Positions 9,701 through 47,773 of a stretch of DNA of 64,000 nt are shown one piece after another; the stretch's first letter is position 1, and every line of letters begins with the position of its first letter. Origin of the DNA: Takakia lepidozioides (Eukaryota; Plantae; Bryophyta); NCBI GenBank assembly GCA_030704615.1, contig CM060731.1, positions 87,110,001-87,174,000 of the forward strand. Reading direction: 5' to 3'. The position numbers and the translations under genes were made by a program. Under the pieces are notes generated by a model, which was not told the DNA's origin, did not search any database, and was given only the letters and a program-made list of their open reading frames with translations.

Positions 9701-9821
9701 GTCTCTGTAAATGTAAATTCTCTTCCAGAAGTATATAAAGGAAATTCTGCCAGACATTCGTGACCCCTCTCCAGTGTGCATTCCAGCCACACAATCGCTC
9801 AACCACGACTCTCCCAAAATC

Positions 9822-14366: not shown

Positions 14367-14504
14367 GTAAGCCCTCAGGAACCGCCGTATACATCGTCTC
14401 TCTCCTCCGGTGACAATGGGTCTAATGTCAGGCTCCCAATTGTCCTCCGTAACTGCAACCTTAAGTCCAGTGGGCTTAGGGGTAGAGGACGCGTCCCGTG
14501 GTTG

Positions 14505-22521: not shown

Positions 22522-24223
22522 CATGCCGCGCATCTCATTGGATGCCCGTGGTACCTGGACATGTCTGGCGGAATTTTTGACGAGTCTGAGAAAGATCTGC
22601 ACGCGAAAGCAGAAGAGAAGAGAAAGGAAAGACGTGTCCCTGCTGGGCCAGAGTCGGCAAAGGAAGCTGCTGCTCTGGAACAATCCAGAAAGGCAGCTGA
22701 GATGGCACAAAAGACGGTGGATGCAGCTGTGCAGGCTCAACAGAAGGGGTCGAAGAAGAGGACTCGCCAGTTAGGAGCAGCAGTCGTGACACCCAAGAAA
22801 ACGAAGAAGCAGAAACAGATAGAGCAGGAAGGGGGTGACGAAGAGGACTTCGATGGAGACTTTACAACCAGCCCACCCCCCGAAACGCAGCCGAAATCCC
22901 CTGTGCCCACCGTTGTCACGAGAGGGACGAGAACAGGCTCGGCAAAGAAGGCACTCTTCAACTATTACGACATTGGCACTTGTCCTTTCATTTTCTTAGG
23001 TGTTTTGAAATGCGGTGCCGCATTCAATTTCTAATCGTTCCCCACTGTGTATGCAGATGAAGCAGTTCCATGCATACTGCTTTGTGAAGGAGAACTCCAC
23101 CTTTGCTTTCCGGAAGGAGGGATTGTTGGTTGACCTGAACTGCGACCCCATCAATTACGACGTCCTGTTCAACAATGTTCCCACGGAACTTCTCCCTCAT
23201 AGCCTCACTTCAACGGAACCCCTGCGGTATTCACGGACTCGGAGCCCTGCCTTCATTCAGACAATTATGGAGACATGCACTGACGTGGAGGGCACAGTGC
23301 TCGACCTCATCTGTGGGACAGGTATGCAGAATCTTGCTCTATGCTATTCTGCAAATTCTCCTTATGCTTTAATTCGCAACATCTGAAGGGCCATGCTATA
23401 ATGTGTGGATGGCATTGTAACAGGTGCCTCAATGTGGGCTGGGCGGTTTTCCGACCGGCACCTCTTTGCCTACGAGGAGGACACATCCGTCTGGGGATCC
23501 CATCTGAAAGGGCTGCAACGGAATGTGAAGGCTCCCATCAAAGCCAAAGACTCCTCGGATTCGTCGGAGTCGGAGGAAGAGATAGTGGACATTGATGCCG
23601 AGGAGAACCCGGAATACGAGTGAGTGCAAACATTGTAAGTTTGCAAAGCCTTCAGGGTGATTTTTTGTCAAATGCATTTCCGGACTGTGGTTCTCATTGG
23701 TCTCGTTGGTGATTGTTATGTGCAGGATTCCAGGATCCGGGTCAAAACATGTAGGGCCTACACTTCCTACCAGGAAGAATGTCCCGTTCTTTGCGAGGGC
23801 CGACTTCATGACGAGCCCGGTGAAGGACTACTCCTTCCTAGTTATGCAGCTAAACTCGCAAATACAGCGATTAGACGATGTGAGAATCCCAGTAAAGTAG
23901 AGCAGATTTTGGAGAGGGCTAGGGAGGACAGAAGGATAAGGAAAGAGTTGGCAACAGCTGAGACAGGTAGACGGGTGCGAAAGTTCATATGTGATTCAGC
24001 GGATGAGAGCGATGCAGACAGGGAGGACAACGACCCAACGGAGGTGAGATGGTCAGTTCCGCAAGGGGAAGATGGGATTTTCGAAAGCCTGGCCAACGAG
24101 CAGTCCGCTGGACATGGTGCCGCATATCCATTTTTGACACGGCAGTTTTGCCGATTGCCAGCTCCTTCCATGGAGGTAAATGGAAATGCCACCCCGCATG
24201 CGGAGGTCGACCATGGCGGACAT

Positions 24224-25203
24224 GGAAATGCGGTGCCGCATTTCCATTTTGGAGATGGACGTTTTTCCAACTGCAGACCCATCGACGGAAATGCGGCTCC
24301 GCATTTCATGATGCTAGACGGGAATGCGGCACCGCATTCCATTGTCCAATAAGAAATTTTGATGACGTACATGGAAATGCGGCGCCGCATTTCCAGAACG
24401 GACATCGTTGTTTGTCCAATTCCAGACCCTTTGACGGAAATGCGGCACCGCATTCCATCGTGCTGGATGGAAAGGCGGCACCGCATTACATTGTCCAATA
24501 AGAACTTTCGATTGCCAAACATGGAAATGCGGCGCCGCATTTCCAAAACAGACATCGTTGTTTGTCCAATTCCAGACCCGTGTGGGCATTCCGTCTTGTT
24601 GGACGGAAATGCGGCACCGCATTCCATTGTCCAATACGAAATTTTGATGACGGACATGGAAATGCGGTGCCGCATTTCCAGAATGGACATCGTTGTTTGT
24701 CCAATTCCAGACCCTTGGACGGAAATGCGGCACCGCATTCCATCGTGCTAGACGGAAATGTGGCACCGCATTCAATGGTGCTGGTCGGAAATGCGGCACC
24801 GCATTCCATTGTCCAATAAGAACTTTCGATTGCCAAACATGGAAATGCGTCGCCGCATTTCCAAGGCCCACATTTGTCCAATTCCAGACCCGTGTGGGTA
24901 TTCCGTCTAGCTGGACGGAAATGCGGCACCGCATTCCATTGTCCAATACAAAATTTTGATGACAGACATGGAAATGCGGTGCCACATTTTCAGAATGGAC
25001 ATCGTTGTTTGTCCAATTCCAGACCCTTCGACGGAAATGCGGCACCGCATTCCATTGTCCAATACGAAATTTTGATGACAGACATGGAAATGCGGTGCCA
25101 CATTTTCAGAATGGACATCGTTGTTTGTCCAATTCCAGACCCTTCGACGGAAATGCGGCACCGCATTCCATTGTGCTCTCCGGAAATGCGGTGCCGCATT
25201 CCA
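24224..25203. repeat. Expanded family A palindrome array with higher-order tandem units
   Basis: About 19 palindrome copies; recurring spacers AGAA(C/T)GGACATCGTTGTTTGTCCAATTCCAGACCC and ATTGTCCAATA. Confidence 0.93.
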
Positions 25204-25491
25204 TTGTCCATTTCCGAGCTTCGGCATGTACATGTTTCATTTTACTCATACATGGATTTCCTTCACCTCAGGACTCTGATATCGCTGACTCTGGTATATT
25301 CATATGGACAGACACATTGTAGAAATGAGACCACAAATTGTAAACAGTGGGCCAATTACGACAGTTCTTGAACACAATGAAACACAAGCACACAGAAGTG
25401 AGGTACGATGGGTTGTTTTATTGATCGAACACGGTGTCTCACATTTAGCAACTCCAGACAAATCTAAGCCCTTCCTCCTTCTACATGGGCG

Positions 25492-26106
25492 TCACCAAGT
25501 CGACGGAACTTCGATAGCCCTCAAAACAAGCTCATTACTGATGCAGCACCTCGAGGTAAACTGCAATGCGGTCGTTCTGGTGCCCTTGGTGGAGCTGACG
25601 ACAATGTCATGCCCATTAATCATACCACCATCATACATTGACAAGGTCACTGTGGGCCTCATGTGCCCGTGCGATTCGTCTTCGCAACTCAGCCGAATGT
25701 CTCCATACACTGGAAGAGCGGAGTGAACTCCACGAATATAGTTTTCCCCGGTGCCGTCCTCCCTGGTCCACTGGCAGCAGTTCCAGCGCCAAAGCGAGGC
25801 CGTGCGTGATCTATCCGGCATCCCATTCCACCTTGGTATATCGAGGTCAACAATTTTCAGGACCCACGGACCGCATTGACCCTCGCCCTCACCTCGCTCA
25901 AAGCGGTAATAGCCCTCCAAATACTCCATTGCGCGCAAAGACTCCCGCTTGATTCCAGAAGCGTCTGTGAAAATAGAGAGCCAGACAATGATGTCTCCTG
26001 ATTCTGGTTTGAACATAACATAATCGTGGCCATGATAAGGGCAGTCAGCAGGATTTTGGCGGCACGGCATCCTTGAAAAAGAGTAGCGGAGTACGCTCAA
26101 TGACAA
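25492..26106 (-). CDS. Family A small cargo gene 1, intact frame
   Basis: 204-aa open frame paralogous to 11795-12505. Confidence 0.7.
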   Translation of the reverse strand: MSLSVLRYSFSRMPCRQNPADCPYHGHDYVMFKPESGDIIVWLSIFTDASGIKRESLRAMEYLEGYYRFERGEGEGQCGPWVLKIVDLDIPRWNGMPDRSRTASLWRWNCCQWTREDGTGENYIRGVHSALPVYGDIRLSCEDESHGHMRPTVTLSMYDGGMINGHDIVVSSTKGTRTTALQFTSRCCISNELVLRAIEVPSTW

Positions 26107-26912
26107 CAGCTCCCGGATGGAGGAGGCAGCAGCACGGTGGCTGGAAGAAGTTCAAGCAAACGCTGCAATTCCTCACAAACACTCCAGGGCACATTTAAAT
26201 TTCCCCCCTACAGGAACCTGCACGGATGAAGATTGGCTGCTCTATGAATGTAGCCGTTTCAATTTCCTTCCCTGCCATGCAAACTATGGGCAGTAAGTGC
26301 CAGGTGGGCCTATAGCCACTCGAGCCGACGAAGTCCATCCCCCCTTCGATGTAAATGCGGCGCCAAATTTCCATCCGGGAGATGGACTTCGGTGGTAGAT
26401 TTCAAACTATACCCCGTGGATGAGAAAGAGGTATCGGTTCATCCACCGCTAGTGTGATGAACACGTTACACGATGATTGGTGGGTACGTGGGACCAAGAT
26501 GCTCCATTATTGGAGCCCGCACTGCTCTTCCCCTTCTCATCATTTCAAAAAATCTAAGGGCTTCGTTGCTGTCCGCAAGGTCATTGGGCATCAAAGACGT
26601 CCTCAGGTCCTCCTTTGCAAGGATGTCGTGCTTCCGGAACCGGGACGACTGCCCTTATGGAGGCTTCGATTATGCAATGTATTCGGCCACATCGGGAGAC
26701 ATCGTTATCTGGTACACAGTTTACACAGAAGATACTGGTTCGAATGTGGAAACATTGTCCGCTTTTGAGTATATCCCAGGCCACTACGCCTTCAAGCGGG
26801 GTGACGATCTTGGTCTGAGGAGTCCGTGGCTCCTGCGCATCCTTGATTTCGATTTTCCCAGCTACGATGGGCACCCATGCAGAAGAATGCGCACTGCTAT
26901 GCTGTTGCGGTG

Positions 26913-28764: not shown

Positions 28765-29672
28765 TAACGGGGTGAGTACATTGACTGAGAAGGTGGGGCC
28801 ATGTGTCGCTTACTTGGTGTGTATGTGAGCATAACGGGCAGTTGGGGGATGGGAATAGGCGTGGCCAGAAGATATGTTAATGCTGGTGACCCATGTATTG
28901 AACGTAGCGGAATTTGAGAGTTTGTCGGATCTGTGCGTCAGAAGCAGCCTTGGTGTGCCAGAAGTAGTTAGAATGCTTATGGTGAAGTACGGTAGAGTGG
29001 GTCCATTTCTGGATATGGACCTTGGTGTGGCTGACAGATGTTGAGGCTTGTTTGTTAGATTCACGGGTGAGAGTGGATTGCAGGTTCCGTATTGGTTTGG
29101 TTATTGGGGGTTCAGGTATAGGATCTATAAGCCAAAATGGATGAGTATGGGCAATGTCCATCGTCCGTGGGGTCCAGTGGGGGTTTGGCAGCCCCGTCCT
29201 GGGCGAGTAGGTCGGCCCTATCATTGCCGCTAATACCAGTATGGGATTGGACTTTGATAAAGTGGATGGTGTGATAGTGGAAACGGCGAGGTTGACAATA
29301 GCAGTAATGAGGTTACGATCCGGGTGGTGGAGGTGGCAAGATGGGCTGGAGAGGTGGTTACGAATCAGGAATAGTGAGGTGAGGCTATCTGTAAAAATAT
29401 AGTGGGGGGGGGGGGGGGGGGATGAGGAAAGCTGAGAGAGAGCTTCGAAAATAGCCATGAGCTCAGCACGTAAAATGTTGGCAAGGCCTGGGAGCCCAAG
29501 AGCCACGCCCTGATTAATACCAGCATGGTAGACGCCATAGCTGGCATCGGAGCCGGATAGGGAGCCGTCCGTGTAATGAGAGTGATAGGGAGAGAATTTG
29601 AGCGGTTTGCTTGATGGGATACCGGTGGATCAGTGAGCGGTACGGGAGGGGGAGGGAGAGGGCGCGGCAGCG
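28765..29672 (-). pseudogene. Non-LTR retrotransposon RNase H region, frameshifted
   Basis: YTDGS, ILRAELMAI, YIFTDSLTSL and KVQSHTGISGNDRAD motifs across frames. Confidence 0.75.
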
Positions 29673-29901
29673 CCCTGACCGGGGGCTGCTATTTCATGAG
29701 CGGCATGAGCATGAGCGGAAAAAAAAAAAGCATGAGCAGACCATTGTGAGTCCACGGAAATAGGGTTAGGAGGCACGGAAATAGGGTCATGTGAAGTTGG
29801 AATGTGGCACCAGTGGACTTGAAATGCAACATTTTATTGCAAATTTTGTGGCAAGCCACGTCTATACAAGTGTGTTCTAACTGTCATAGCCGGAATGGGC
29901 A

Positions 29902-32900
29902 CTACTCTCCTACACCCTCCGAGGAACTTGCCCCACCTTCTTCCTCATCCCCCTCATCCCCCTCATCCTCCGAGCTCTGTGATGCATCAGTTCCACTATG
30001 CCTCTCAAAAATCCCGTCCTCTCCTTGGGGGACTGTCCACCTCACCTCCTGGGAATCTTTTGCGTCTTCTCCCCCACTTTCCTCAGCAGAATCCAACACA
30101 AATCTACGAGCTCGACGGGCTCTAATAGCTGCTGCCTCCTCCCTCATCTTCATTTTCTTGAGGCTTGCCTCGTCTAAAATCTGCTGTACACGACTACGTT
30201 CGGAACACCTCCTAATGGACACCGAAGCAAGCCGGGCAGCATAAGTAGGAAGGATGTACTCCCTTTCTGGACTAGGCATGAAATCCCCCCTGGCAAAAAA
30301 AAGGCACGTTCCTCCTGCCCATGAACTCCGGTGTAGACGTCCCTCCGGCAGTACTTGGCATCCTACAGTAAGAACAAATCCACTTGAAGAATGTCAATAC
30401 CAGCACAACCAGAAAGGGTTTTCAATGAAATAAGAGAGCGGAGGGAGGTGCCTCACAAAATCTGGAGGCAACTTACAATGCCACCACTCACTCGTAAACC
30501 GGGGGCTCCTCGGCCTCGATCCCAACTTCCTCCCCCTGCTCCTTCTCGGATTTTTCCTCATCCTCCGAGGATGCCTCTTCCTCTTCGGCAGACGTTCAGC
30601 CGCTGCAAGTTCCGAGTTGTGGAGGGCAGTATCTGGCTCGAAGGCGAACACATGCCTGTCGGACAACGTCCCTGCCCACATTGAAGCACCTGAGGAACAA
30701 AGCGGGCGGTTAATAGCTTGCGGCATGCAATTGCAATGGGGCCAGGGGACAAACTGAGCACGTGAAGGCTTACCCGTGCCGCATGTGAGGTCCAGAATCC
30801 GCCCTTGGACATCCGAGCACGTCTCCATGAGGGTTTGGATGAAAGCAGGGCTCCGGGTCCGGCTGTACCGCCACGGTTTGCCTGTCTTTGTGTCCTTCGG
30901 CATACTAGAGTGGGGCACATAGTTGTAGAGGACATCGTAGGTTACAGGGTCCACAGCGGCATCAACAAGACGACCGTCGTTGCGGAATTTGAACGTAGAC
31001 CCTCTCTTCACAAAGCAATATGCCTCAAACACCAATGTCTGCACATCCAACAAAGAAGGGATCAATTCCAGGGTCTACTTAACATACACCACAATATGAA
31101 GTGAATGCAATAGATTGATAACTTACACTTTGGCCCTCTGTTCGCAACCCCTGCGTACTGATGCAGAACCATTTTCTGAGGAGGACCGGGGTGACACTTT
31201 TCGGTGTCCACCTTGCCACCGCATTCTCTGTGGTCTTCCCTCTCGTGGCAAGGACAACCACACATCCACCATCATCCAGAAGCATCCCCGCCAGCCCAAA
31301 CCCGGCTTTCCAGTAGTCCTCAGTAAACCTGTTCCAGGTGGGCACACCATCCAGGCCCTCCAGCAGCTCCCCATCTGGAATGTCGAGGAGAATCATGTCG
31401 CAAGCTCTCTCCACCTCAACCCCCCCCGAGTGCTCTTGCAATTCGTGCTCACAGCCGTGAAGAATTCCATCATGGCTTCAAAACCAGGGGTGTCTTTAGG
31501 CTCTGTACCGGCAGCCCTCTTCTTGGCTTTCCCCTTCTGCTCCGCCAGAGACTTGTTGTGTGCCACCTTCTTCGCCCTGGCAGCGAGAGCGTCAAGGAAG
31601 CTCTCATTGACGCATTGGATGATGGTTGGAGGTTCTAGCTTTGGCCTGTGCGTAAACGTCACCGCCGAATACCGCCGTGTAGGCTCGCCCTCAAATGCCA
31701 ACTTCTTGGCAGAGCCAGTCCCACTCCGAACTGACTTGGGAACCCGGCGACCGGTGACTGGGTAGGAGCAACAGCAGTCGCAGGACCTTGAACAAAATCG
31801 GCGTCGGAGTCACTCTCTTGGGTCCCCTCCTGCGCCTCCTCCGATGCCCCGATGGTTTTCTTCTTTTTGGGTGTTACTGAAGTCACCTGTTTCCTTGTCC
31901 TTTTCCTTTGACCTTTACTCTTCTCATGCAATTTCTCCTGAATTCCTGCCTGAGCAAGCTCTGCCGCTTTCCTGGAGTTCGCAAGCGCTTTTGCCTCTTT
32001 TGCACCCAACGGAGGCAGCGGAGCCCGGTTTCGTCGGAATTCAGCATCCAGCTTCAATTGAAACTCGGATGGGTCGAGTGAGCCGGGCGGAAGGTCCACA
32101 TACCAAGGGCAATCACGCAAATGTTCCAGATGCCACTCCTTCACAATATCGTCAGTGTACATGGAGTCAGCCCCAGGGTTCCTCCATGCCAGGAAGAATG
32201 GTGGCTCGAAAGACAGATGACCTTTCTCCAAAAGCGAGAACTTACAGTACCTGCATTCATGAAAAACACAATGAGGTCCGAAAATGGCTAAGTCTCTGAA
32301 CGGCAATAGGGCCTACAACTGGAATATGGCGCCGAATTTCCACTTCAGGGCCACCCAGTCTAGGGACTTAGCCCGAAAATGGCTAAGTCCCTCGACGGCA
32401 ATAGGGCCTAGAACTGGAAAACGGCGCCGAATTTCCAGTTCCGGGCCAGCCAGTCTAGGGACTTAGCCCGAAAATGGCTAAGTCCCTGGACGGCAATAGG
32501 GCCTAGAACTGGAAAACGGCGCCGAATTTCCAGTTCCGGGCCAGCCACACTAGGGACTTAGGCCGAAAATGGCTAACTCCCTGAACGGCAATAGGGCCTA
32601 AAACTGGAATATGGCGCCGAATTTCCACTTCAGGGCCAGCCAGTCTAGGGACTTGGGCCGAAAATGGGTAAGTCCCTGAACGGCAATAGGGCCTGGAACT
32701 GGAAAATGGCGCCGAATTTCCAGTTCCGGGCCAGCCAGTCTAGGGACTTAGCCATTTTCGGAGCCCTGACTGGAAATTCGGCGCCATTTTCCCTAACACC
32801 ACTTGAGGCCTCTAACATCCTGCAATGCCAGGACTTGAAAGAAAGGCAGCGCGTATGTACCTGTACAGAAGGCGCATTGCTGATTTGTCCGCGTTCGGCT

Positions 32901-35900
32901 GGTCGGTGAACTCGTGGCTCCGGCGAGCATCTGCTATCTCCCGAAAGAATAGGTTGGTTTTGTAGAGCAGAAAGTACCTCGTCACATAGTCACGTAGGCT
33001 CTCTGCTGCAGGAGATATCTCCATCTTGAACTGATGTGCTTGTGTGTCCAGCTGCTCTTGCGCATTCGTCGTCACCTGTGGAGATTGTCCATCAGATCGC
33101 TTTCCTCAAAAAATACAATGAATCCACCCCCTACTAGAGTACAAGCCCCAAACGAAGCGTGGGGAAGTACCTGAAACCACCATGTCATGCGGTTCATCCA
33201 CATGTCGAATGTGGGGTCAGAGAGTTTGTCCGGTTTGGGGAAGCTCCACATGTCCCTGGTACTTTGGGAACCATTCCAGATTGGAGCCACCGGGTCTGTC
33301 CAACCACCCAGCATATTCGTAAGCGCCAAACACCACAAAAAGGAGTTGTTGCCACCACAATTTGGTTAAGAATGTATCACCTTTTCTGTTGCATCCACAC
33401 AGGATGTGGCTAGACGATGGAGCTTCTCCAATGTCATCGTGGGCTTCAGAGCGCGAGAGTAGTGCTTCCCCACCTCCACCAGAAAGTCGGCACCAAGGGC
33501 GGGATCAGCTATGGCCACGTACTTTACCATCCGCGACTTGTACTTTATGCGGGCCCTCACCTCCGCAGCTTTGACATACGATTCGAGTTCCGGGAGGGTT
33601 GGATTCTTCTCCTCTGACTCCATGTAGAACCTCCGCGCATGTGCCAAATCCTGCTGTATTTTCGTCTGTCGAAAAGGCGCACATAAGATTAGAGATCCTG
33701 CTCAACACAATTTCTTCTATTGGGGGAGGAGAGACAAATTAGCTCAACAAAACTGTGAGGAGCTTTACCCGAAATATGTAGTCCACCATGGCGTCGACGC
33801 TCAGCCTATACCAGGTTCTGTCTGCCTTTGCCTCCGACTTGCGCAGGAGGTCGGCACTGAGGGAATTGGCAAACTCTTGCACCCCCTGCTTCCCGACATC
33901 CTTCACTCGGAAGAGCATATGGGACAAGTTCGTGGCAATGAAGGCATTCTCAGTCACCCTGCAGTGCCACATTTCCATCAAACAATACTGAAATGGGAAT
34001 TTTCATCATATATGAGGATTCGCAATGAAATGACTTCCAAATTCAAAGTCCAAAAGCGAGAGGGGTTGTAGCTTACGAGTTGATGTCGGCCATTGCAGCT
34101 TTGAGAAGACTGCGATCTTTGGGCCCCGCAACCTTCAGCACAACACAATCGACGGCGAAATGCCAATCGAGATCGTTGGGGTGGGCTTGGGCAATGTGCT
34201 CCATCCATGCCAGGAGGCGATGATTGCCGTCCCACACGTAGAACATCTTACCGGACATGTGCTGGAAAAGAGGATCACTAGCAATCGATCTCTCGAACTC
34301 CTCATTTCGCGTTTGCCAATGGGGACCCCATTTGTCCACCTCATCGGAAGTGTGGGCACGGGAAGCTCCGTGGTCGTTCTCAATGGAAACGTAAAAGGCG
34401 GCAGACCCCATTCGATATCCATCCCGGAAAGAGAATTTCAGCTTGTCGATATCGCCTGGCAGGGCAGGTCTCACCACCTGCAATGACACCAAGCGGCAAA
34501 GGGGAATTCGAAGCTTGGCCGGGTACACCATGCCCCCCAGCACCCTGCCAATGTTGCTGTGGGTTGCCTCCAACATCTTGGCAGCGGCCAACTTCATATC
34601 CGCCTCAGACATGACGTCTGCTGCAGAGGGGTTTTCCGGCAGCCCACCAGGACCGCCAAATCCAGCCTGTATGCTCCGGGTTTGGGGCCTGGGGATGTCC
34701 GGGAGGATGTCATCCTGGTCAGAAACCTCCATGTCGTCCTCCTCAACAGGGTCAGCCACCTGCGAAACAACCTCCAGCACTCTTGTCGTCTCTACTGCCC
34801 TCTCCCTGGCTTCACCTCGAACTTGCACAATCCGTGCTCTTTCAGGTGTTCTTTCCTCTCCTCCACTCTCCACCGTATGGGTAATTGCGGGGGCTGCTCT
34901 TGCCCGCGATGGTCTAACCGGTGTGCTACTGCCTCTCTGTGGTGTCTTGTAGGGATCCACCGTCTCTGTGGGTCCCTCGCTTACATTGGCATCTGTCATT
35001 TGGGCACCCCTGGCCTCTTCAGCTGCCTTTTGTCTTTCCTCCTGGCTAGCATTCTGTCTCGTTTGTTCTTTTGCCCTCTCTTTTGCCCTCTCACGGGCTT
35101 TCTGTTTCTTACTAGGGCTAGCAGCAGGGGAGCCCTCCAGGACGACCACCTTTGATTGAGGCGAACTGAAACCCTCGCGCGCACTGCTCACTCCCCCCTC
35201 CGCAGCCCGTGACTGCTCTCTCGCCGGGGATTGCATGTGCTTAGCTTTCTTCTTTTTCTTTGCGTGGGCGGGCCCTACTGCATGTGCATGAACAACCTCC
35301 ATTGCCGGATCTGCTGTCCTCATGTCCTCACGCCCTTCACCTGCCATGCCGCCTGCACCAACCTCCCCAATGCCTACTCTGTCGTAATCTCGTTGCAAGT
35401 CCTCCCGTCCACCAACAAAAGGTTTAAGTTTGCCCTCTCGCCCCAAGTTGGGCGATTCAAACATGCGATGAGTTGGAGCTGTCGATGATACCACCAGCGT
35501 GCCGGGCTCGTCGTCACTCTGTCATTGACAAAAATCGTGAAAACCAACATCGGTGCAAAAAGCAGCATCGCAACGAGCAGCGCAACCACCATAGCAACAA
35601 TCATGTAGCAAAAATGAAAACATAACAAGTTTAGGAAGTATGGAGAGCCATGCAACAACAATGAAAACAAATGCAACCATTGCCTAAGAATGACATGCAC
35701 AAGCAGCCTTCTCCAGAGCTGCCGGATTTGCACACGCATTGCAAACAATCTAAGGTTCACTCAACTATCTAAAGTTCACTCATACAGCAAAGCCAGGATG
35801 AAGATGCAAAAACAAAGCGAAAGCAAAAAATAAATCGAACAAACCGAAAGCAGAAGTGGCTTGCCTGAGAGTACTCGGCTTCAGTTGGCGCAGGTTGTGA

Positions 35901-35942
35901 GCAAGACACTGGAATCTCCTGCTGGAGCTTCAGTTTGGCCAT
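29902..35942 (-). CDS. Family B accessory gene: ParB-like + beta-class amino-methyltransferase-like, multi-exon
   Basis: FYVWDGNHRLLAW (ORF 34073-35494), CDMILLDIPDG...PTWN...LLDDGGCVVV (31079-31441), RSPAFIQTLMETCSDVQGRILDLTCGTG|ASMWAG..DRHVFAFE (30640-30870). Apparent frameshifts near 31425 and 31750; start approximate. Confidence 0.82.
32277..32790. repeat. 95-bp tandem repeat inside intron 32251-32860, carrying the family B palindrome
   Basis: GGGACTT recurs at 32363, 32458, 32553, 32648 and 32743. Each unit has GGCGCCGAATTTCC and a GGGACTTAGCC/GGCTAAGTCCC hairpin. Confidence 0.93.
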
Positions 35943-36254
35943 GCGAGAGATTGGCCGTCGTCCGTAGTACAGAGCTTTCAACTTCCGCCGCGGTCTGGAT
36001 GTGAGGTCTCTCTCAGGAGAGCCACGCCCTTCAGGCGGCATAAGTCCCAGCCAAAAAGATCTCTTTTTTTGGGGTACATGCCTGGAATACCATGTTAAGC
36101 CAAGTTTAGAATGAGATTTAGGGTACGTGTCCAGGAAGCCATGCGTCGCCAGCCCAAATAATAACCGACGGCCGTCGACATTTATTGCCCAACTGCGCAA
36201 TTAAATGTCGGATGAAGCCCTCCATGTCGGATGAAAATCGACGTAAACAGTCCC

Positions 36255-37920
36255 GGAATTTCCAACGTAGAGGTAATTCGGAGCGCTGCACGATGGAATT
36301 CCGGCGCCGGATTTCCATCCTGCAGGTAATTCGGAGCGCAGCAGGATGGAAATCCGGCGCCGAATTTCCATCCGCGGAGGAAGGGCGGCGGTGGAAATTT
36401 CCCTCATGCAGGTAATTCGGAAGCGCGCGGATGGAAATCCGGCGCCGAATTTCCATCCGCGGAGGTAGGGCGGCGGTGGAAATTTCCCTCATGCAGGTAA
36501 TTCGGAAGCGCGCGGATGGAAATCCGGCGCCGAATTTCCATCCGCGGAGGTAGGGCGGCGGTGGAAATTTCCCTCATGCAGGTAATTCGGAAGCGCGCGG
36601 ATGGAAATCCGGCGCCGAATTTCCATCCGCGGAGGTAGGGCGGCGGTGGAAATTTCCCTCATGCAGGTAATTCGGAAGCGCGCGGATGGAAATCCGGCAC
36701 CGAATTTCCATTCGCGCAGGTAGGGCGGTGCGCCGAATTTCCCTCCTGCAGGTAATTCGGATCCCGGATGAATGGAAATTCGGCGCCGAATTTCCATCCA
36801 GCAGGTAAGTCGAATCCCGGATGAATGGAAATTCGGCGCCGAATTTCCATCCAGCAGGTAAGTCGAATCCCGCATAAATGGAAATTCGGCGCCGAATTTC
36901 CATCCTGCAGGTAATTCGAATCGGTGCCAAATGGATATTCGGCGCCGAATTTGCATTCGCCATGTATTTCTGAGCGTGGAATTACCTTCGTGCAGGTAAT
37001 TCCCAGATGAGAATTACCTTTGTGCAGGTAATTTCCAGATGAGAATTACCTTCGTGCAGGTAATTGTGGACGAAGAATTCACATCGATTGGAATTACCTG
37101 GAGGAAGGTAATTCTCATCTGGAAATTACCTGCACAAAGGTAATTCTCATCTGGGAATTACCTGCACGAAGGTAATTCCACGCTCAGAAATACATGTCGA
37201 ATGGAAATTCGGCGCCGAATATCCATACGGCACCCATCCGACTTACCTGCTAGATGGAAATTCGGCGCCGAATCTCCATCCACCCGAGATTCCACTTACC
37301 TGCTGGACGGAAATTCGGCGCCGAATCTCCATCCATCCGGGATTCCACTTACCTGCTGGATGGAAATTCGGCGCCGAATTTCCATCCATCCGGGATTCCA
37401 CTTACCTGGAGGATGCAAATTCGGCGCCGTTTTCCATCTGTGGAAGTTTTTATGTCGGCCAGTTTTCGGTCTGACCCCCCGACAAGACTTCCTTTGGGGG
37501 GGCCCGGATGGAAATTCGGCGCCGAATCTCCGTCCATGGGATGTTCTCTGTCGCACACTCGCCGGCCTCTGCGCCCGAGGCGACTTCATCCGGGCGTCCC
37601 CTGTTCGATATTCGGTGCCGAATTTCCGTCCGGGGGTTGAAATGTGACGGCCAACTGCAGGCCACTCCCCCCTCCCCGACTGCATCCGAACCGCCCCGGA
37701 TGGAAATTCGGCGCCGTTTTTCCATCTGGGGATGTTTTTATGCCGTCCAGTTTTCGGCCTGACCCCCCGACACGACTCCCTTTGGGGGGCCCGGATGGAA
37801 ATTCGGCGCCGAATCTCCATCCAGGGGATGTTCTCTGTCGCACACACTCCGGCCTCTGCGCCCGAGGCGACTTCATCCGGGCTTCCTCTGTTGGATATTG
37901 GGTGCCGAATTTCCATTCGG
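36255..37920. repeat. Family B central array of GGAAATTCGGCGCCGAATTTCC with 85-bp tandem units and a long inverted repeat
   Basis: Units start at 36429, 36514, 36599 and 36684; perfect 93-bp arms at 36961-37053 and 37104-37196. Confidence 0.95.
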
Positions 37921-38219
37921 GGGTAGTAATGTGAGGGCACGGTGCCGGCTTCTCCCCTTCAGCCGTCATCATCCGGACGGCCCCCCACTTTCTGACTGCA
38001 TACCGTTGGCAGTTATTGCGCAAAGACCAGGGGCCGCATTCCGGAGACAAGGTTCATTAACACTCTGACTGTGGATTTTTGAGATAGTTGGCTCCCTGGA
38101 TTTGGATCAGGCTTCGTCGCTCGGACAAATCGGCATCGCATTCATTCCCATCGCTGCACCCCCTTCTACCAGGGAGCTTCCCCGCACGCCATCCTGGCAG
38201 TCTTGTGTGCACATCTCCC

Positions 38220-41200
38220 ATGGCGGAAAACCCGAGCGCTACAGTGTACTGCCCTCCTCACGAGCATAGAGCTTCATTTCCGTGCAGAGGGGACACCTGC
38301 CGGGTGATGGAGAAATATCTGTGCGTTCGATACCACCTGAAACCGGGGTCGGTTTTTTTGGAGGAGGAAAGGAAGGACTCAAACGGCCTTGTTGTCGAGA
38401 GTATTGTTGTGCTCCACGATGATTTCGGCGATGGCAGGGAATGGCGAGTTCCACCATCGGACAGCGTCATATACAGGGCTGTTGGGGACTTCATTTGCCC
38501 GCCAAATGCACCGTCTATCCTGGCGCCTTCCACGAAACAATCCGCGAATCAGAGAGTGGGTACCTCAAAGAGAGAAGTCCGCAACGAAGTAAATCCAGAG
38601 CCGAACCCATCCATGAAGACGACCGAGAACCGGGTTGTTCACAACCTGTCCGACTCAGACGAGGTCATGGAAGTTCCGAGGTCGTCCTGGAGATCAGGCA
38701 AGTCCTCAATGGACGTCAGTGGAGGAGGGAGTCATATTCCCAGCACGAGCACCGCAGTTCGATCTATTCTAGAAATTCTGCGAGGGCTTCACCTGGAGGG
38801 ACACCGGTCGGAGCTGGCCGGGCTGGACTACAGCAAGTTCGCAATTAAATCGGTTACATGCCTTCCCGCCGACGTCGACGGTAATATCTTCTTTGAGTTC
38901 CCTCCTCGGGCGGACTACTCGAGGGCGTCCGGAATGTTGACAGATATGGATAGAAAACATGACGGTCATCCTTGGTGCGTTACCAAAACCACCAGCATGA
39001 AGATGCTTGATGGTGTGCGGGTGCGCTACGTTGTTTGTGCGGGCGCGTTGCGGTGTTTCTCCCCAACTTGCTTCCACTTTAAATCCAGAGGTCACAGGAA
39101 CGAGACCGATTGGACAGGCACAGCTCACCAACCATTTCGAGCTCAGGAGAAGGTTCCGAACTCCACATTTAAGTGTGCGCATTGCAAAGAACCACCACAC
39201 TGCATGTCTGTTTGTAATGCCAAGCAGTTCTATGTGTTGCACCGTTTCCCTGACCTCACCCGAGCTTGCATACACGTTGGTTCCCATTGTCACAAATTGG
39301 CGAGGGGGAACTCGCGGGAGGCTGCCCACGAAGCAGAGCAGCTCGTTCAGGAGGAGGTTAAGTTGAGACCGGGTGCCAAACCCAAACAGATACAGCTCCA
39401 AGCCGCCCATAAGATGGCATTGGCCAGAATTATGTCGGAAGACGGCTCCGATAGAGTTCCTCTCGACGAGAAGGAAATGGAGGCATTGCTGGAGTCGGTG
39501 TCCCACGTATGTTCACCGAATGTCCGAAACCACATTGTCTCATGCAAACAGAAAATTGGGCGTGGCTCGGATATGCACTCCATTCTGGAGGTGAAGCGAC
39601 GATGTGGATATGACTACATTCATGGAAGTAGGTTTCCAGGACAAGGGACTGAGGCAGATCGTTGTTTCGTATTCAAAATGTCCACGTGTGGACCTGGCAG
39701 TGGCGTCGAACTGGTCGACAGGATGACGAGTGGGAACTTGTCAAACAGTTGGGTCATGTTCGACCATATCAAGCGAATTACAAATCACCAGTGGGTGACA
39801 ATGGGTGCACATGTCTACGACACCCACTGCAGGATGCTAATGACAATTGCTATTTGTGAGATGAAAGGAGAGGACACACAATCGGAGATGCTTCTTTGGC
39901 AGGGAATAAACGAACAGATGGCCAAGGCGGGATTGCCCCCTCCCAATTTCCGTGGTTTCATGGCGGACAACGCACAAGCAAATTGGGCTGCCATCCGAAG
40001 GGTGTACGGGCAAGACCCCAATGTTCCCATGGAAGGCAAGGAGAGATCTTGTGGGTTCCATTTTCTGCAGAGCCTTTCGCAGTACACAACCAGGCTCGTG
40101 GCGCCAGATTTCAGAGAGGAGCACCGTTCCATGTGCCTTGCGTGGAAGCGCGCTCCCACCTTGGATGATGCAGAGACACAGTTTGCATGCATACGGGCTT
40201 GGTGGACATCGTCAGGTGCTGTAAGGAAATCAGACGAAGGAGCAATGGTCAGTTGGCTAGCATGGTGGCATTATCGTTTCCTCCAGTTCGGCGACTATAT
40301 GCGGGAGGTGAGTTGCACGAATTCGCGTCCCGTTGGATATTATTCTTGGCCATATTTGTAACTTGCTTGTAACCTCAACATGTGCTTGTGCAGGAAATGT
40401 GTCTCGACTCCGACACCGACATGCCCACGACAAACATGGCCGAATCAGTGCACTCTTCCTGGCGTGCCTCCTCTGCGGCGCATCTGGTGGACATCCTCAC
40501 TGCCACAACGGAGGACATTGTGAGGTCAATTATGCAGCAATGCAGGTACAACGAGTTCTTGAAAGGGAAACAGTGGGGCTTGGGGCCGGACAGGCAGGAA
40601 ATGCTGATGCGGACTGCCTCCAGATCGAAGAATCCTCGGAAGTGGGCGGCGGCCTTGCGAGAGGGCCTTCGGGACACGCCATTGCTGCGAAGAGGCCAAC
40701 ATTTGGAAGGAGATGTTCATACCCGTCCAGTGAGACGAAGACTTGACGAGGCACCTGGCGGAGAAGAGGATTCATGGCGAGCTGACAAGAATATTCGCAC
40801 GCTCCCTCGTGGTCCGGTGATGTTGTCCGAGGAGGTCTCGTCGAGCACCGGAAGTCCTGCACGTTCAAGATCGCCATCTCCTTTGAGCACAGGGCGCGTG
40901 CCCCGGCAACATAACGAGCCATCTGTAGTAAAGCAATACAACATTCCCATTGTGGAGACAAGAGTGTCGGAGTCACAGTGGAGAATTGCGAGGACATTGC
41001 CGGCATTTCGAGGGAAGTGTTGCGCCATCCGGGTGGATACGAGAGCACGCTGTGGTGAGATGATTCGGAGGAACCCACACGGTGCTGTACCTGCACCTTG
41101 TTTCAGCGGCAGATTTTTGACTCCCACATTTGCTCACGCCACAACGCAGACATTTTGGTTCTGTAGGCACGACATAATGACCTGTGTATTTGGCAAGCCC

Positions 41201-41812
41201 AAGTACGGGATTCAGGGAATGCCGGAGCCTCCGGGCGTCTGGCCTGTTGCACCGGGTTGCAGCCTCTCTCAGAATGAGGCGGATGCTCTATCTGCAGCAG
41301 GATTTCGAATGGTGCAACGCACAGACATCCCGGCCCACGCATTTCCGGTTCCTCAGACCCAGCCATTGCAGACTGCTCGGTCCAGTAGAGACGGATTGGA
41401 CAATTCTGCACATCCCACAATGCGATTCGGAAGAGTGAAGAGACGACACCCTCCCAACAAGTTGAATGAGACTCGGATTGCCAATGCTCTTGGGATGGCT
41501 TGCACTATTCAGAGCTCCGTGGACGTACCCCCACCCGGCCTTGGGCGTGTGTATCGGATGGCAACGGCCGGCTCGGCTGTACGCGACGATGTATACACAA
41601 TTACGATTGGAGTGGAGCCGACTTGCAACTGTACGGACTTCTCGTTGATGGAAGCAAAGAAGGGTTCGAAGTATTATCCGTGCAAGCATCTGTATTACAT
41701 TTACCTGAAGAGGTTGAGGATGAACGTGACTATTGATGACTTTATTCATGCACCGGCGTTGAGCGTGAACGAGCTGCACAAACTCCTCCTTAGGGATTCC
41801 AGAAATCATTGA
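38220..41812 (+). CDS. Intact MULE transposase, family B (GCM-like domain, DDE, SWIM), ~1168 aa, 2 exons
   Basis: Exons 38220-40307 and 40394-41812 joined in frame by a GT-AG intron. Motifs VMFDH, FMADN, CGFH, TNMAES and SWIM CNCTDF...CKH. Confidence 0.92.
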
Positions 41813-41969
41813 TGGGGCAAACGGAATCCTCCATATGGATATTTTCAAATGCATTTTGCTGTATCAGACTTTTTTTTTGCAGTGTAATGAAATGCACCCA
41901 AAACTCCTGGAATGAGGCAATATTCCATTCAAACTGAGATCCAACAGAAGCAGTTGTGGGGCCATTTCT

Positions 41970-42330
41970 GGAAAAATGGCGCCGAATTTCTCTTTTTGGG
42001 GCCGAAAACTCGCTAAGTCCCAACATGCACTGGTACCTGTGTTTGGGAAAATGGCGCCGAATTTCTCTTTTTGGGGCCGAAAACTGGCTAAGTCCCAACA
42101 TGCACTGGTACCGTGTCTGGAAAAATGGCGCCGAATTTCTCTTTTTTGGGCCGAAAACTGGCTAAGTCCGAACATGCACTGGAAAAATGGCGCCGAATTA
42201 CCTGTCATGAGGGGACCTATAGCCGTGGAATTCGGCACCATTTTTCGCCAGAGAGACCTATTGCCGCGAAATACGTCGCCGTTTTTTCAGGTTACGGACC
42301 CTATTACCGCGAAATTCGGCGCCATATTTG
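41970..42330. repeat. Family B subterminal palindrome array
   Basis: GGAAAAATGGCGCCGAATTTC variants at ~41970, 42046, 42119, 42181 and 42311. Confidence 0.85.
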
Positions 42331-43334
42331 CACATGTCGCTGGGAATTGGCATGAGCGGAAGACGAAATTTCATGAGCACAACTGTCAAAAGTGCAATTT
42401 TTCCTTCAAGGGGCCGAATAATATATTTGTTTTTCCTGACACATTGCATTAAATTATTGTTTTTTATTGTTTTTTATTTTCGAAATTTGTACTTCTGCTC
42501 ATGAAAACCGATTGTGTTACTACTCTGCTCATGCCGCTCATGCCGCTCATGCCGCTCATGCTCATGAAATAGCAAACCTCCCCTGACCCAGGCCTTGCAG
42601 GGTGTGGCCTTATGAGACGTACTTCGCCGGCTGCCAGTACACGGCAGGCTTTATGCCTTCTTTGAAATTCGGAAGTGCCGTAAAAATCTATCTCGAGTCC
42701 AATTTCCAACAGTACTTGCAAATTGGCAATAATTGTGATGCTTCACACATTCATCCACGTATGTTGTACTGCCTATCCTGTGATTTGCAGTTCGCCGTCG
42801 CTGGCGCAATGCAGTCATTTCGGCATAAAGCTTGATGTCGGCAATCATAATGTGTTGCGTACCTTCGTGCTAAGTGTCCCCTTGAGTGTCAGTGTTTGTG
42901 CTATGCTCTTCTGGCACAGCACAAACAAATTTGACTCGGGGTATCCTATTTATTGGACTCGTGGGGCCATTGTCGTCTTTCCATAATGGATGTCTTCATA
43001 TCCTTTGCAAGGTTTGCTTTTCATCCAAACACAATACGGCTTCTTGTAGCTTCTTGTCTTTGAAGACAGTTTTTCTAGTTGGTGTCTCTCAGTGTGGCTG
43101 ACTACGGAGTTCGGTGCAAACTTTCGCCGTGCATGTCATTCTTACATCCATTGCATGCATTGCCCGCAGTCTTTGGGTCAGTGCTACCCTTATTCACCTC
43201 AGTTCGTTTGGGGTGGATCCCATTTTGAGAATTACGGGCTATCAGTTCGGGGGACCCTTTGTGGATCGCAACTTTGGGTCAGTGTAGGAAACATGTAGGA
43301 GAGAGACAGACTTGCTCAATTTCATTCCAATGCA

Positions 43335-46300
43335 GGTAGTCTTCCACTGACTGCCACTGCAGATGATGATGGGTTTGCAGTTGTTCATGAGGATGAGCTG
43401 GTTATAGTGTTCCCTCCGGAATTGGGTTCTCTACTTGTTCAAAAAGAGGTGTATGACGAGGATGGGAATTTGGATTCTGGGCACTTGGAGAAACCATTGG
43501 TTGGCGAGTGTGGAAGGAAGTGGAGAGTCCTTCCAGGCACATACTGAGTCCTTGGAAAAGAGAGAAGACAATCAGCAGGATCAGTGGTTACCCCTGGCAC
43601 TGCAACATCGGTCGTGCAGCAGAAGGGCACAGTTCATATGAAACAAGAGGTGAGCAATCCACTACATTCGTGACTCTTTCAGACTCGTCCTCGGAGGATG
43701 TTTCTGAGATTCCTCCGCCAGTGCAGACTCCATTCTTGGATGATGACGAATTGCAGGAGATAACGAGTATCATTCCGAAATTGAAAGCCCTCGCAGGGGT
43801 GCCTGGGTGCAAGAGCGAGCTGCGTTTTGTTGATTGGGAGTCCCTTCGGGTGCAGCGGGTTCAATATGTGCCAGCAGAGTTTGATGGGGACATCCTGTTT
43901 GAGCTCAACCCTCCCACGTCTTCCAGTGGACTAGTTGGGCTTCTGCAGGGCATGGACAAAAAACATGACGGGCACCCTTGGTGCAGGACAAAAACATCGA
44001 ACATCCACAACAACATTGGATTGAAATTTCGAAGGTCGGATTGCGTTGGGCATTGCAAGTGCGTGAATATTTCTTGCCCTCGCCTGAGAAACAGCGCTAA
44101 ACCAAACGAAAGTGAGTGGGAAGGTGTGCCCCTGAATCCTTTCACCCTAGGGCTTTGCCCCTCCCAAGACCAATACTTTTGTGTGCAGGTTCTGCAAACT
44201 TGCCCCGTCTAGTGTTTCTGTGTGCCACACTCGTATGTACCAAGTGGCACACCGATGCAAGACAATGACTCGTGCCTGCATTTATATGGGTACACACGAG
44301 CATCTTGTGTCGAAGGGAAGTTGCAAGGATAGCGTGGACATCGCTAGAAATCTGCTGAAGCAGGAGTTCCACAATGCCCCTTGTGCATCACCTTCTGCTA
44401 TAGCGCTTGCAGCTAGCAAGGCATTCCTGGAAAAACACATACTAGGTGAAGGGGATGCGACACAACCAATGCTAGATGCAGATTCGCTTGATGTAGTGAT
44501 GGACCATTTCTCCGTGTTGAGCTCTCCCAATATTCGAAACTAGGTGAATGCACTCAGAATGGGCACAGACAGTGCTGGATTCATGGACAACATTATGGAC
44601 CTCAAACGGAGGAGTTGCTATGAATTCATTCAAAACAGTATCTTCCCTGGCCAGGGTTCCTCCAAGGTGTATTTGTTCAAGATGTCCACAGTGGGCGAAG
44701 GCAGTGGTGTGAGCATAGTCCGCCGAATGCAACTTGGAGGAGATTTGGCAAAATGTTGGTTAATGTTTGATCACTGCAAATGGGTGAAGGGTTGGACAAC
44801 CATGGCGTGCCATGTATACAATCCAGCGTACCAGCGTGTGCTTTCCATAGCAATTTGTGATATGCAGTCGGAGGACATTGAATCCCAGATGCTCATGTGG
44901 AATTCTTTCCTGGCCGTCATGCAGCGCAATGGAATGCAGAACACAAATTTTGCGGGCTTCATGGCTGATAGTGCACAGACAAATTTCAATGCAGTGCGGC
45001 GCGTCGTTGGTTCGGGGGATCCTAAGGTCCCAATAGGAAATAGGGAGCACACATGCCTCTTCCATTGGAGTCAATCTCTGGCATGTCATACGAAGCGCTG
45101 CATTTGCCCTGACCTTCAGTTGGAGCACAGAAGGCTCTGCCTCAAGTACAAAAATGCCACCTCAATGGGAGAAGCTGAGAGCACTTACCAAGCAATCCGG
45201 GCTTGGTGGTTCTCCTCTGGTGCTGCTACTGGTATCCACCTGAAGGAGTTGGAGGACTGGTTGGTTTTCTGGCACTTCAGGTACAGACAATGGGGAGCTT
45301 TCATGACGACGGTAAGCCTCTTCAATCCCAGAAACACAAATTTCACTTTGCATCGTGCCTGTTCCTTTGTGGTTGTTGGATTGTCACTTGCAGAATCTCT
45401 TCCATTTCCTTTCATTCCTCACATTTGCATGCAATGCCTCCTGCAGGACATGTCCTTGGAGGACTTGGCTGACATGCCTTCCTGTAATTTGGCGGAGTCT
45501 ATTCACAACGCCTGGATGCAGCAGTCAACCAAAGTAGGACGTGACTTGTATGTGGCCACTGCAGATGACATGGTGCGGGCACTTACACAACAAACCAGGT
45601 ACCGCAATTTTCTGATGGGACGGGGCGGAGGTAAGGGCCCTGATACAACTTTGTTGATGCTAAGGGCTGCGAGCAGATCCGGAGATCCATGAAGATGGCC
45701 AGAGCTCTGAACAGGTGCACTGAAGGCTCCCCTTTGCAATCCAGGGTCCCCCATTTGGAAGGCGAGGAAACATTTGGATCATGCAAAAGGAAATTGAACA
45801 CTCATCCAGGGTCGGATGGAGATTCCCATCGGCCGGACAGGGTCAATTTCTCTCCACCAAAGGTGTCTCCGGTGCAAACTAAGTCATGTGTTGCTTAGTC
45901 AGTCCCCCCCTTCCCAGGTGGGTCCTCTTCCAGTGGAGCAGGTGCAAATCATGTTAGCACAGCAGCAGGAATCCCATTGGAGGAGGTGGTGTCATTGGTG
46001 CATGAATCTGATTGCATTGACAGTGAGTGGCATATAGAACGCACCCCACCAGGATCTAGAGTGGCTTGCATGGCAATTCGGACCCCCTCTTTCAAGAATT
46101 GCAAATCAAAAATATGCAAAGGCTTCAGGGGGACTCCAGCTCCAACATTCACAAGGTTGTTCCGACCTTATCATAGTGGGGAGTCAAAGGACCACAAGTT
46201 CTGGTTCTGCCTAGACGATATGGCACGATGCGTCAACGGAACAGTTCGTCCTTCGGTGATAATGAAGCCCCCTCTCCCCGCAATTTGGCCTGTGAATCTT

Positions 46301-46870
46301 GGGACATCGCTGTCATCAACCGAGATAAGCATGCTGGTGGAGGGAGGGTTCCGTCTTGCACGGTCTCGGGTAGTGCCCTCATGCACTCTGGGCACAAATG
46401 TGCCACATGCTCCGGCAATGCCTCCACCCAGTGCCGACTCCCACCCAACAAATAGAGATGGAAAAATAGTGCGCCGTGTCGCTTCGGGTGCAGATCACGA
46501 CTGCAAGATGGAATCGGCTGGAATTTTGCATGCTCGGGTGACTCGTATCACCGTAGTCCCTGCCCCGGGGTATGGACGGATTTACACAGTGTTGTCTACT
46601 GGCTCAGTTCTTCATGGCAAAGAATATCAGGTTACCGTGGGGAATTTTCCTACGTGCACTTGTCCGGATTTTGTAACGATGCGTGAGGGCGCTCTCGGCA
46701 TGAGAGGGAAGTGGGTCCCCTACAAGCATCAATATTACATATACCTTGTAATTATGTGCTGCGATGGTAAGAGAGACCAATTCATTCACCAAGCCACACT
46801 AGGCTACGGAGAAGTCATCACTCTTCTGCAGCGGGACACCTCGCGTAGGGCTCCGCCAGATTCTCTTTGA
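43335..46870 (+). pseudogene. Divergent MULE transposase (probably family C) with stops and frameshifts
   Basis: DKKHDGHPWC, LMFDHCK, FMADSAQ, CLFH, CNLAES and degenerate SWIM CTCPDF...PYKH. Intron at the same position as in A/B (~45312-45447); in-frame stops at ~44541 and ~45690. Confidence 0.88.
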
Positions 46871-47037: not shown

Positions 47038-47773
47038 GAACTGCTGCTAGTGGACGTGGGTGGACTCCATCGGAGAGACGTATACTCCTGAAGGAGTGCG
47101 CTCCTCTTCTCCATTGTATGGGGACATTCGCATTGGTGTGGACGACGAAACGTGAAGCTTTCCATATTCGATGGTGGTATGATTGAAGGGCACGACATTG
47201 TGGTGAACATCAACAGGGGCGGTACAACGGCTGCAATCCAGTTTACCTGGAGGAGCCCGATGACTCATGAGCTAGTTTTCAGAGCAGTCGAAGTCCCATT
47301 GACAACGTGACTTGTATTCAGAAGGCACAGGGCTAAAGATTTGTTTGCACAATCAGCACAGTAGACGTGCTTCAAATGCAATTCATGTGGATCAATAAAA
47401 ACCCCATTGTGCCCTCTTTTTGTTCTATTTTGTATCCATCGTTCCCAGAATGCATCATTCATCATTTCGTTTGGGATTGGGAGTGTGGGTGGATTTTGCA
47501 AGTGGCTGGTAGGCTGAAATGGGCCCCCATTGTATAGAGCAGTACCACCCTACCATTCGCGAAACACTGTCTTTCAATATGTAATTCTAAAAAACATTGC
47601 CGAACCTCCTTCATCGGGAGGTCCTTCTCCCCCTATGACCGTGACACCCTAAACCCTATTCCCGCGGACACTCATTTCCGGAAAATAGTCTTGCTCATGT
47701 TTTTTTCGACACTTACGACTCTGCTCATGGCTCATGCCGCTCATGGCTCGTGGCTCATGAAATAGCAGCCCCC
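47038..47773 (+). mobile_element. Family A copy 2, right fragment with TIR
   Basis: Colinear with A1 12232-12961; resumes at the base after the 26912 breakpoint. Confidence 0.92.

Follow-up and report, generated by a model that had tools for sequence, protein, structure and literature searches.

A methylase-like domain with a replaced catalytic motif in the accessory gene of a Mutator-like transposon of Takakia lepidozioides

RESULTS

A DIPDG motif in the last domain of a transposon accessory gene

We analysed a window of 64,000 nucleotides from Takakia lepidozioides (Bryophyta; assembly GCA_030704615.1, contig CM060731.1, positions 87,110,001 to 87,174,000 of the forward strand); all coordinates below count from its first letter. 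The window contains a 12,900-bp transposon, element 2 (29681-42580), flanked by a perfect 8-bp duplication. On the strand opposite its transposase lies an accessory gene of ~1,295 codons in total, whose last domain resembles a methylase and carries the motif DIPDG where beta-class amino-methylases have the catalytic DPPY. An earlier sequence-only reading of this DNA had picked out the motif, but did not mention that the domain ends a large accessory gene belonging to a Mutator-like transposon that carries arrays of palindromes.

A six-frame scan of the window found four exact DIPDG motifs, starting at 8205(+), 31384(-), 57120(+) and 62848(+), against a chance expectation of 0.025 per window and a maximum of one in 200 shuffles. 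The claim that the motif is shared by four families is thus upheld, far above the shuffle expectation. The four copies have identical amino acids and differ at third codon positions, and are therefore not recent duplicates. The motif and its neighbours are placed as follows:

31370-31384 (-): DIPDG of element 2, the motif IV equivalent (six-frame scan, shuffles and hhalign register)
31331-31336 (-): WN, near-invariant, 16-20 residues past the motif IV Asp (scan and relatives)
8205-8219 (+): DIPDG of element 1, a frameshifted relative of element 2
57120-57134 (+): DIPDG of a third family; gene ~54319-57770, with stops, ending before motif I
62848-62862 (+): DIPDG of a fourth family; fragment ~62080-63335
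22522-24116 (+): fifth copy, of the element-1 family and 92% identical, its motif IV exon lost by deletion (sequence comparison)

Every one of the five window copies has frameshifts, stops or deletions. Motif I is reached only in the element 2 copy and the element-1 family; the 57- and 63-kb copies end earlier. The later motifs LLDDGG and ILDLTCGTG, which had been ascribed to the families in general, are exact in the element 2 copy, whereas the 8.2-kb copy reads VLDDRG and VLDLICGTG, and the 57- and 63-kb copies read FLSDAG and FLSDAS, with no motif I.

The accessory gene is spliced

The accessory gene of element 2 is arranged as follows, in the order of transcription:

34073-35521 (-): first long exon; disordered N-terminus, then a conserved VWDGNHRLLA domain (34076-34549), weakly ParB-like
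~33751-33966, 33376-33680, 33165-33290 and 32863-33074 (-): four middle exons, predicted helical; boundaries inferred from tblastx to locus L001 and other copies, open reading frames (ORFs) and splice sites
31127-32253 (-): exon; conserved linker, low-complexity stretch and N-terminal half of the methylase fold; single bases lost near 31747 and at 31420
31039-31126 (-): 88-nt GT-AG intron, spliced in a run X8 contig
30774-31038 (-): exon; motif VIII strand, motif X equivalent WRYSRTRSP (30873-30847) and motif I DLTCGT (30792-30775)
30690-30773 (-): 84-nt GT-AG intron within motif I, spliced in a run X8 contig, ends checked
30472-30689 (-): last coding exon; motif I end, motif II (FAFEPD, Glu 30639-30637) and acidic tail; one base short near 30583

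One contig of sequencing run X8 is spliced at both domain introns and spans the motif, and a second joins 32253 to ~32864 (by-eye comparison). X8, which comes from one study, was judged to be RNA solely from such spliced joints; neither the two DNA runs compared nor X11 show these joints. The introns rule out a prokaryotic gene.

Other copies have the three single bases that element 2 lacks (near 30583, near 31747 and within the C-run at 31420), whose absence may reflect decay or assembly error. The C-run (31420-31427) lies in a coding exon and varies in length from 8 to 13 among copies, only some of these lengths keeping the frame upstream of the methylase fold; the frame of element 1 breaks at the same place. 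A programmed frameshift was rejected because of this variation in length, and a 38-nt intron because the X8 contig reads into the stretch. The run is possibly a slippage switch or an error.

The VWDGNHRLLA domain lies ~900 codons upstream in the gene and is present also in L001 and in two other window copies. We take its motif to resemble the ParB signature. One of two exons searched gave a weak match to a ParB-like PHROG (E 0.013); hhalign against 113 phage ParB domains gave a probability of 0.6, inside the shuffle range, and a model of the domain (predicted local distance difference test, pLDDT, 51) gave no useful fold match. WDGNHRLxA patterns at 25 loci in viral and bacterial contigs were read as chance.

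Past the stop codon, a further exon or small ORF (NVPFFAR-DF; 29902-30364(-) and ~9210-9650(+)) is conserved between elements 1 and 2, and a related X8 contig splices into it.

The domain aligns with beta-class amino-methylases

A profile of exon B retrieved 35 proteins among 1.84 billion representatives, three of which (P0004, P0009 and P0010) are unrelated repeat proteins; the short hits P0019, P0025 and P0033 were excluded from alignment A3. When profiles were compared with hhalign, DIPDG aligned on the D[PL]PYG of 44 phage beta-methylases with a probability of 70 (E 3.9e-5), where 25 column shuffles reached at most 0.97, and motifs X-I-II aligned at 94.6-97.5. Against 33 ParB-fused phage methylases the alignment ran end to end over 213 columns in beta order (probability 84), and the exon-A profile alone gave the same register at a probability of 7.8. 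Both phage sets had been selected through motif IV or ParB patterns.

Pfam searches agreed in part. An intron-free fragment matches PF01555 at E 7.6e-6; P0020 scores 26.5 bits against a cut-off of 26.7, P0057 14.5 and P0058 18.3, and the window exons gave no methylase match. In the Atlas clusters nearest the domain from the moss Ceratodon, PF01555 is annotated on 39-65% of members; one cluster lies at 0.95, with 39%.

We built an AlphaFold model on homologue P0057 from a 31-row alignment. The top 11 VIA matches to it are beta-class amino-methylases (Z 6.8-9.6, root-mean-square deviation 3.9-4.8), the best being CcrM (Z 9.6, deviation 4.7, 175 aligned), and the best Foldseek match has E 5e-3. 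In the model a strand ends at residue 471, directly before Asp472, at low confidence. Searches of PDB sequences returned nothing significant, one listing having beta-methylases at E 0.016-1.3. The model and the profile alignments support the beta-class fold and the order IV, X, I, II, but do not define the local geometry at the motif. The proposal that DIPD occupies the DPPY position in a beta-class motif order is borne out by the hhalign register and the fold matches. We do not class the domain as an active beta-class enzyme because the aromatic of [DNSH]PP[YFW] is found in 0/24 sequences.

Position 4 of motif IV is never aromatic among the relatives

Of these 24 sequences (16 hits of a motif search, three Ceratodon proteins, L001 and the four window copies), 22 have an acidic residue at position 4, two have Ser and none has an aromatic. 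The 16 hits, from 2,759 candidates, read DIPDG (seven), DAPDG and DIPEG (two each) and DAPSD, DTPSG, DAPEN, YAPEN and DALEN (one each), i.e. D in nine, E in five and S in two. The Ceratodon proteins have DAPEG in all three cases and L001 has DIPEG; a Ceratodon pair and L001 (n = 3), which were found via the other exon, with no motif IV in the seed, likewise have no aromatic. At 50% identity, alignment A8 (20 rows) splits into six groups. Among close copies of element 2, no letter change reaches a 1% share over 31370-31384 (1,179 and 880 contigs over a 161-nt stretch, one sample), and so no DIPY variant does.

The replacement of the stacking aromatic, noted earlier from the window, thus extends to all the relatives found. 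The Asp that replaces it was said to be invariant, which is true of the four window copies; elsewhere the position is D, E or S. Such interchange (P-D-G, P-E-G, P-E-N, P-S-G) would fit a turn rather than a catalytic acid.

Named full-length homologues come from the moss Ceratodon purpureus only, with open frames of 788-803 aa. Two of the Ceratodon proteins are 100% identical where aligned and have locus tags of different chromosomes, which fits mobility. Other searches were negative: the pattern I-x-L-D-I-P-D-G-L gave two matches in viral sequences, neither a methylase on inspection; tblastn against phages and plasmids gave no match; a search with a single exon among longer proteins gave 0/401 candidates; and a metagenome scan gave one locus only.

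Other active-site positions are unevenly kept

The aromatic of motif IV stacks the target base (PMC4738411). In the rotifer enzyme N4CMT the corresponding Tyr is modelled as stacking the base, and the cofactor is contacted by His253, the Phe and Ser/Thr of motif I, the motif II acid and the third motif IV residue (PMC10406627); changing SPPY to APPA kills activity (PMC8885841).

The motif X His is found in 0/32 rows of the transposon family vs at least 30/44 phage enzymes. Of 28 rows, seven keep the first motif I Gly and 21 lack it. The phage comparison set (48 methylases through the filter, 44 kept at <70% identity) is no control for this second loss because the filter demanded the motif I glycines. 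With the aromatic absent throughout and the cofactor residues mixed, the base-stacking side has therefore been lost and the cofactor side partly kept.

Between families, the ratio of non-synonymous to synonymous substitution (dN/dS) of the accessory gene is 0.13-0.30 in five comparisons, with dS saturated in two more; for the transposase it is 0.09 in one comparison, with saturation in the other. These rough counts near saturation are evidence of constraint on the protein, not proof of catalysis.

Palindrome arrays lie in the non-coding parts of the element

A 22-bp palindrome is present in 73 copies at up to four mismatches, 72 of them within elements 1 and 2 and the fifth copy, and is absent from 20 shuffles. 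All 32 palindromes of element 2 (up to five mismatches) lie outside exons, which make up 59% of the element, in three arrays with no strand assigned:

32278-32793: intronic 95-bp tandem array, six palindromes
36256-37938: intergenic array, 20 palindromes of the GGAAATTCGGCGCCGAATTTCC type, with a 336-nt inverted repeat
41967-42331: array of six palindromes downstream of the transposase

The palindromes thus lie well inside the element, also within introns of the accessory gene, and the element ends carry a different short repeat. The central CG of the palindromes is intact in 29/32 cases in element 2, and in 5/24 and 4/21 of those of the element-1 family, in which TG or CA is the prevailing dinucleotide; the cause is either methylation in the past or a variant of that family multiplied as the arrays expanded. 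The ratio of observed to expected CpG is 0.82-0.84 in elements 1 and 2 (1-10600 and 29682-42583) vs 0.49-0.64 in four other stretches. We rejected this difference as evidence of shielding, since it is confounded by age and composition.

The 336-nt inverted repeat (36730-37427, 91% complementary) lies between the divergent genes and could form a hairpin RNA or cruciform. Arrays of a 116-bp tandem repeat with internal hairpins (52293-54177) lie directly upstream of the gene of the third family, and are unlike the 22-bp palindrome.

The element and its surroundings

The remaining features of element 2 are its ends (no strand) and its transposase:

29673-29680: left target-site duplication CCCTGACC, 8 bp, identical to 42581-42588
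29681-29740: left end; 21-nt imperfect terminal inverted repeat (17/21 bases match the right end) and short subterminal repeats
38088-41812 (+): Mutator-like transposase, two ORFs, C-terminal SWIM finger (conserved motifs, SWIM match)
42527-42580: right end; subterminal repeats and terminal inverted repeat
42581-42588: right target-site duplication CCCTGACC

We infer that the element is Mutator-like from its conserved motifs, the length of the duplication and the type of finger. The transposase conserves FDH, FMAD, C.FH and AES, which we take to be the DDE and CxxH residues of Mutator-like elements (MULEs); its SWIM match (E 0.0038) is under the cut-off, and there was no Pfam MULE match. An 8-bp target duplication also fits hAT or Zisupton elements. 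MULE target duplications measure 8-11 bp, and inverted repeats of 21 nt, short for MULEs, are within the listed range (PMC6446971). The N-terminal region of the transposase (38900-39400(+)) is rich in Cys and His and has no Pfam match. Presumably it resembles a GCM/WRKY-type DNA-binding fold.

Further copies of the left end of element 2 are found at 12961 and 47773. The first of them ends element 1, which is laid out like element 2 (transposase 13-2275(-), accessory gene ~4761-9120(+)). Copies were surveyed through contigs of sequencing runs: run X1 has 15,218 contigs over a 1.9-kb stretch, of which 8,490 are at least 99% alike. The element 2 family is young and abundant, these contig counts not being a copy number, and the family is also transcribed.

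Several other repeats share the window. The fifth copy (22522-26912) resumes 20 kb further on at 47038-47773, split by nested insertions that include element 2 and a transposase at 43508-46870. Ty3/gypsy-type ORFs at 13293-18709(-) include, between the gag-like and the reverse-transcriptase parts, a domain of the C5 DNA methylase type (PF00145, E 3e-13). Nested repeats at 28877-29506(-), 47649-48518(-) and 59021-59680(+) comprise an RNase H-like ORF (by eye) and two reverse-transcriptase fragments.

DISCUSSION

Known systems with similar parts

The domain shares its fold and the order IV, X, I, II with CcrM, M1.HpyAVI, M.MboIIA, M.PvuII, M.RsrI, rotifer N4CMT and Marchantia DN4MT1. Unlike those beta-class enzymes, which have DPPY or SPPY, it reads D[IAT]P[DES], has lost the motif X His and is transposon cargo. 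Folds kept after loss of their catalytic residues are known from METTL14 and from the methylase of the DIRS1 retrotransposon, the latter also transposon-borne; METTL14 is a host subunit of the MT-A70 type and the DIRS1 protein is PCIF1-derived (group 2), whereas the present domain is PF01555-like and belongs to a DNA transposon (PMC4738411).

Transposon cargo of this kind has been described in algae. Sola1-1_Ec32 of Ectocarpus has a 1104-aa gene for a ParB-like plus N4C/N6A methyltransferase protein opposite its transposase, and the protein is proposed to bind and modify its own element (PMC12477816). As in that element, a large gene stands opposite the transposase with the amino-methylase domain last; unlike it, our element is Mutator-like rather than Sola and from a land plant rather than a brown alga, and the protein is predicted to be active there but has its catalytic motif replaced here, the two being compared by description only. 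Red-algal Plavaka elements carry PAG2 (PF01555 plus SET) and PAG3 (ParB-like plus 2-oxoglutarate oxygenase) (bioRxiv 10.1101/2025.02.11.637652). They resemble our element in combining PF01555-type cargo with ParB-like cargo, a weak call here, and in tandem inverted-repeat arrays beside the ParB-like gene, and their homologues are reported in Mutator elements; the domains are separate there and in one gene here, where no SET or oxygenase domain was detected and the catalytic motif is eroded.

A further parallel is VANC of Arabidopsis, an accessory protein of VANDAL MULEs; its target motifs lie in tandem arrays, both within introns and upstream of the transposase (PMC5735166). Both are Mutator accessory genes with family-specific motif arrays in non-coding element DNA. 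They differ in that VANC has DUF1985/DUF287, 9-bp non-palindromic targets and a proven function, whereas here the repeated motif is a 22-bp palindrome and the function a candidate one; neither DUF gave a Pfam match on the scanned window exons or on P0057 and P0058.

A pseudo-methylase that may bind its own element

The reading we prefer, which in our judgement stands about evenly between right and wrong, is by analogy with VANC: a pseudo-methylase whose protein would bind the palindromes of its own element to keep it active. DIPDG would be the remnant of a catalytic DPPY in the beta-class domain that closes the spliced accessory gene. Methyl transfer would have been lost with the stacking aromatic, the Pro at position 2, the motif X His and, in many copies, the motif I Gly; from these positions it seems likely that the domain no longer methylates. 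The fold may have been retained as a dimerising DNA- or SAM-binding module (SAM, S-adenosylmethionine), as in METTL14, and the accessory protein would bind the arrays of the 22-bp palindrome and might protect the element against CG methylation by the host, in the way VANC protects VANDAL elements. The sequence-only reading had left a choice between altered chemistry and a dead reader or shield of modified DNA; the dead option is the better backed, by the eroded His and Gly and by the D/E/S swap, and altered chemistry has no positive evidence.

Several observations weigh against this reading. Much of the active site persists: the motif IV Asp and Pro in 23/24 sequences each, the motif I Asp in 27/28, the motif X Lys in 27/32 and the motif II acid, with both motif I glycines present in elements 1 and 2. 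With these residues retained, the domain may still bind SAM and have some activity. RlmJ uses a Trp of a different motif in place of the Tyr (PMC3814359), and the transposon family itself has the near-invariant WN. Confidence in the P0057 model is low (pLDDT 48 on average and ~55 at the motif), and its structural overlaps begin at residue 475, past the Asp. The motif IV search was seeded with DIPDG and DAPEG sequences, many homologues are fragments of possibly decayed copies, and two 92%-identical relics give a dN/dS of 0.62. As to the palindromes, the 32 of element 2 are not independent events because they are grouped in three arrays; the transposase could be their binder; and with the central CG mostly gone in the element-1 family, any shield there was not lasting.

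The same evidence of inactivity would serve a dead fold with a MURB- or TnpA-like part in transposition, be it pairing the ends or helping to load or stabilise the transposase. Beta-class methylases dimerise (PMC10406627), mudrB is said to be necessary for integration (PMC6446971), and the gene accompanies the transposase in elements 1 and 2. However, the palindromes are internal and intronic, as VANC targets are (PMC5735166), and the ends carry another repeat; we consider such a role unlikely, if worth keeping in view. That the domain is still an amino-methyltransferase, with Asp and a backbone carbonyl activating the amine and a Trp (of WN or WRG) replacing the Tyr, so placing N6-methyladenine or N4-methylcytosine on its own DNA, seems to us rather doubtful. 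The retained Asp, Pro, motif I Asp, motif II acid and Lys, the RlmJ precedent (PMC3814359), the strong selection and the predicted methylation by the Ectocarpus accessory protein (PMC12477816) all speak for it; but the His is lost in 32/32 rows and the first Gly in 21/28, RlmJ itself retains DPPY, and the Trp need not be compensatory because Tyr-bearing phage enzymes also have one after motif IV (at an offset of 10-12 in 25/44).

An acidic residue at position 4 in 22/24 sequences, across at least six groups under 50% identity, together with a partly kept cofactor pocket, would suit a re-purposed chemistry in which the acid selects a charged or non-base acceptor (an alkylated base, a ring nitrogen, lysine or arginine) or assists a different reaction of SAM. 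Yet D and E swap freely and two sequences have Ser, as in a turn, and there is no positive evidence for any substrate, which makes this distinctly improbable. Neutral decay, or a motif arising by chance among dead repeats, is scarcely credible: the frameshifts, stops or deletions of all five window copies would accord with it, but the motif is kept while synonymous sites are near saturation, the three base losses are filled in other copies, the transcript is spliced and the Ceratodon frames are open over 788-803 aa.

Implications

ParB-plus-methylase transposon cargo is already known in algae. We found no description of a DIPDG-type motif or of a land-plant Mutator version in the literature outside subscription papers, and reference 50 of PMC12477816 may already describe such proteins. 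Were the role only to scaffold transposition, the finding would be a modest addition to the diversity of accessory genes. In a bolder and fairly doubtful version, a re-tooled domain would flip the central CpG cytosine of the palindromes into a pocket in which the acid takes the place of the stacking aromatic, capping it against host methylases or running a SAM reaction new to the fold; if true, this would be a transposon-encoded, base-flipping anti-silencing factor derived from a phage-type methylase and common to mosses and other plants. ParB-methylase cargo has been proposed elsewhere to write marks on its own elements, and the present lineage suggests the opposite path, with the fold kept by selection across mosses and the catalytic motif lost. 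Should palindrome binding by the pseudo-methylase prevent silencing, Mutator elements would have evolved a VANC-like system a second time, independently, and the protein would offer a tool for sequence-specific local demethylation.

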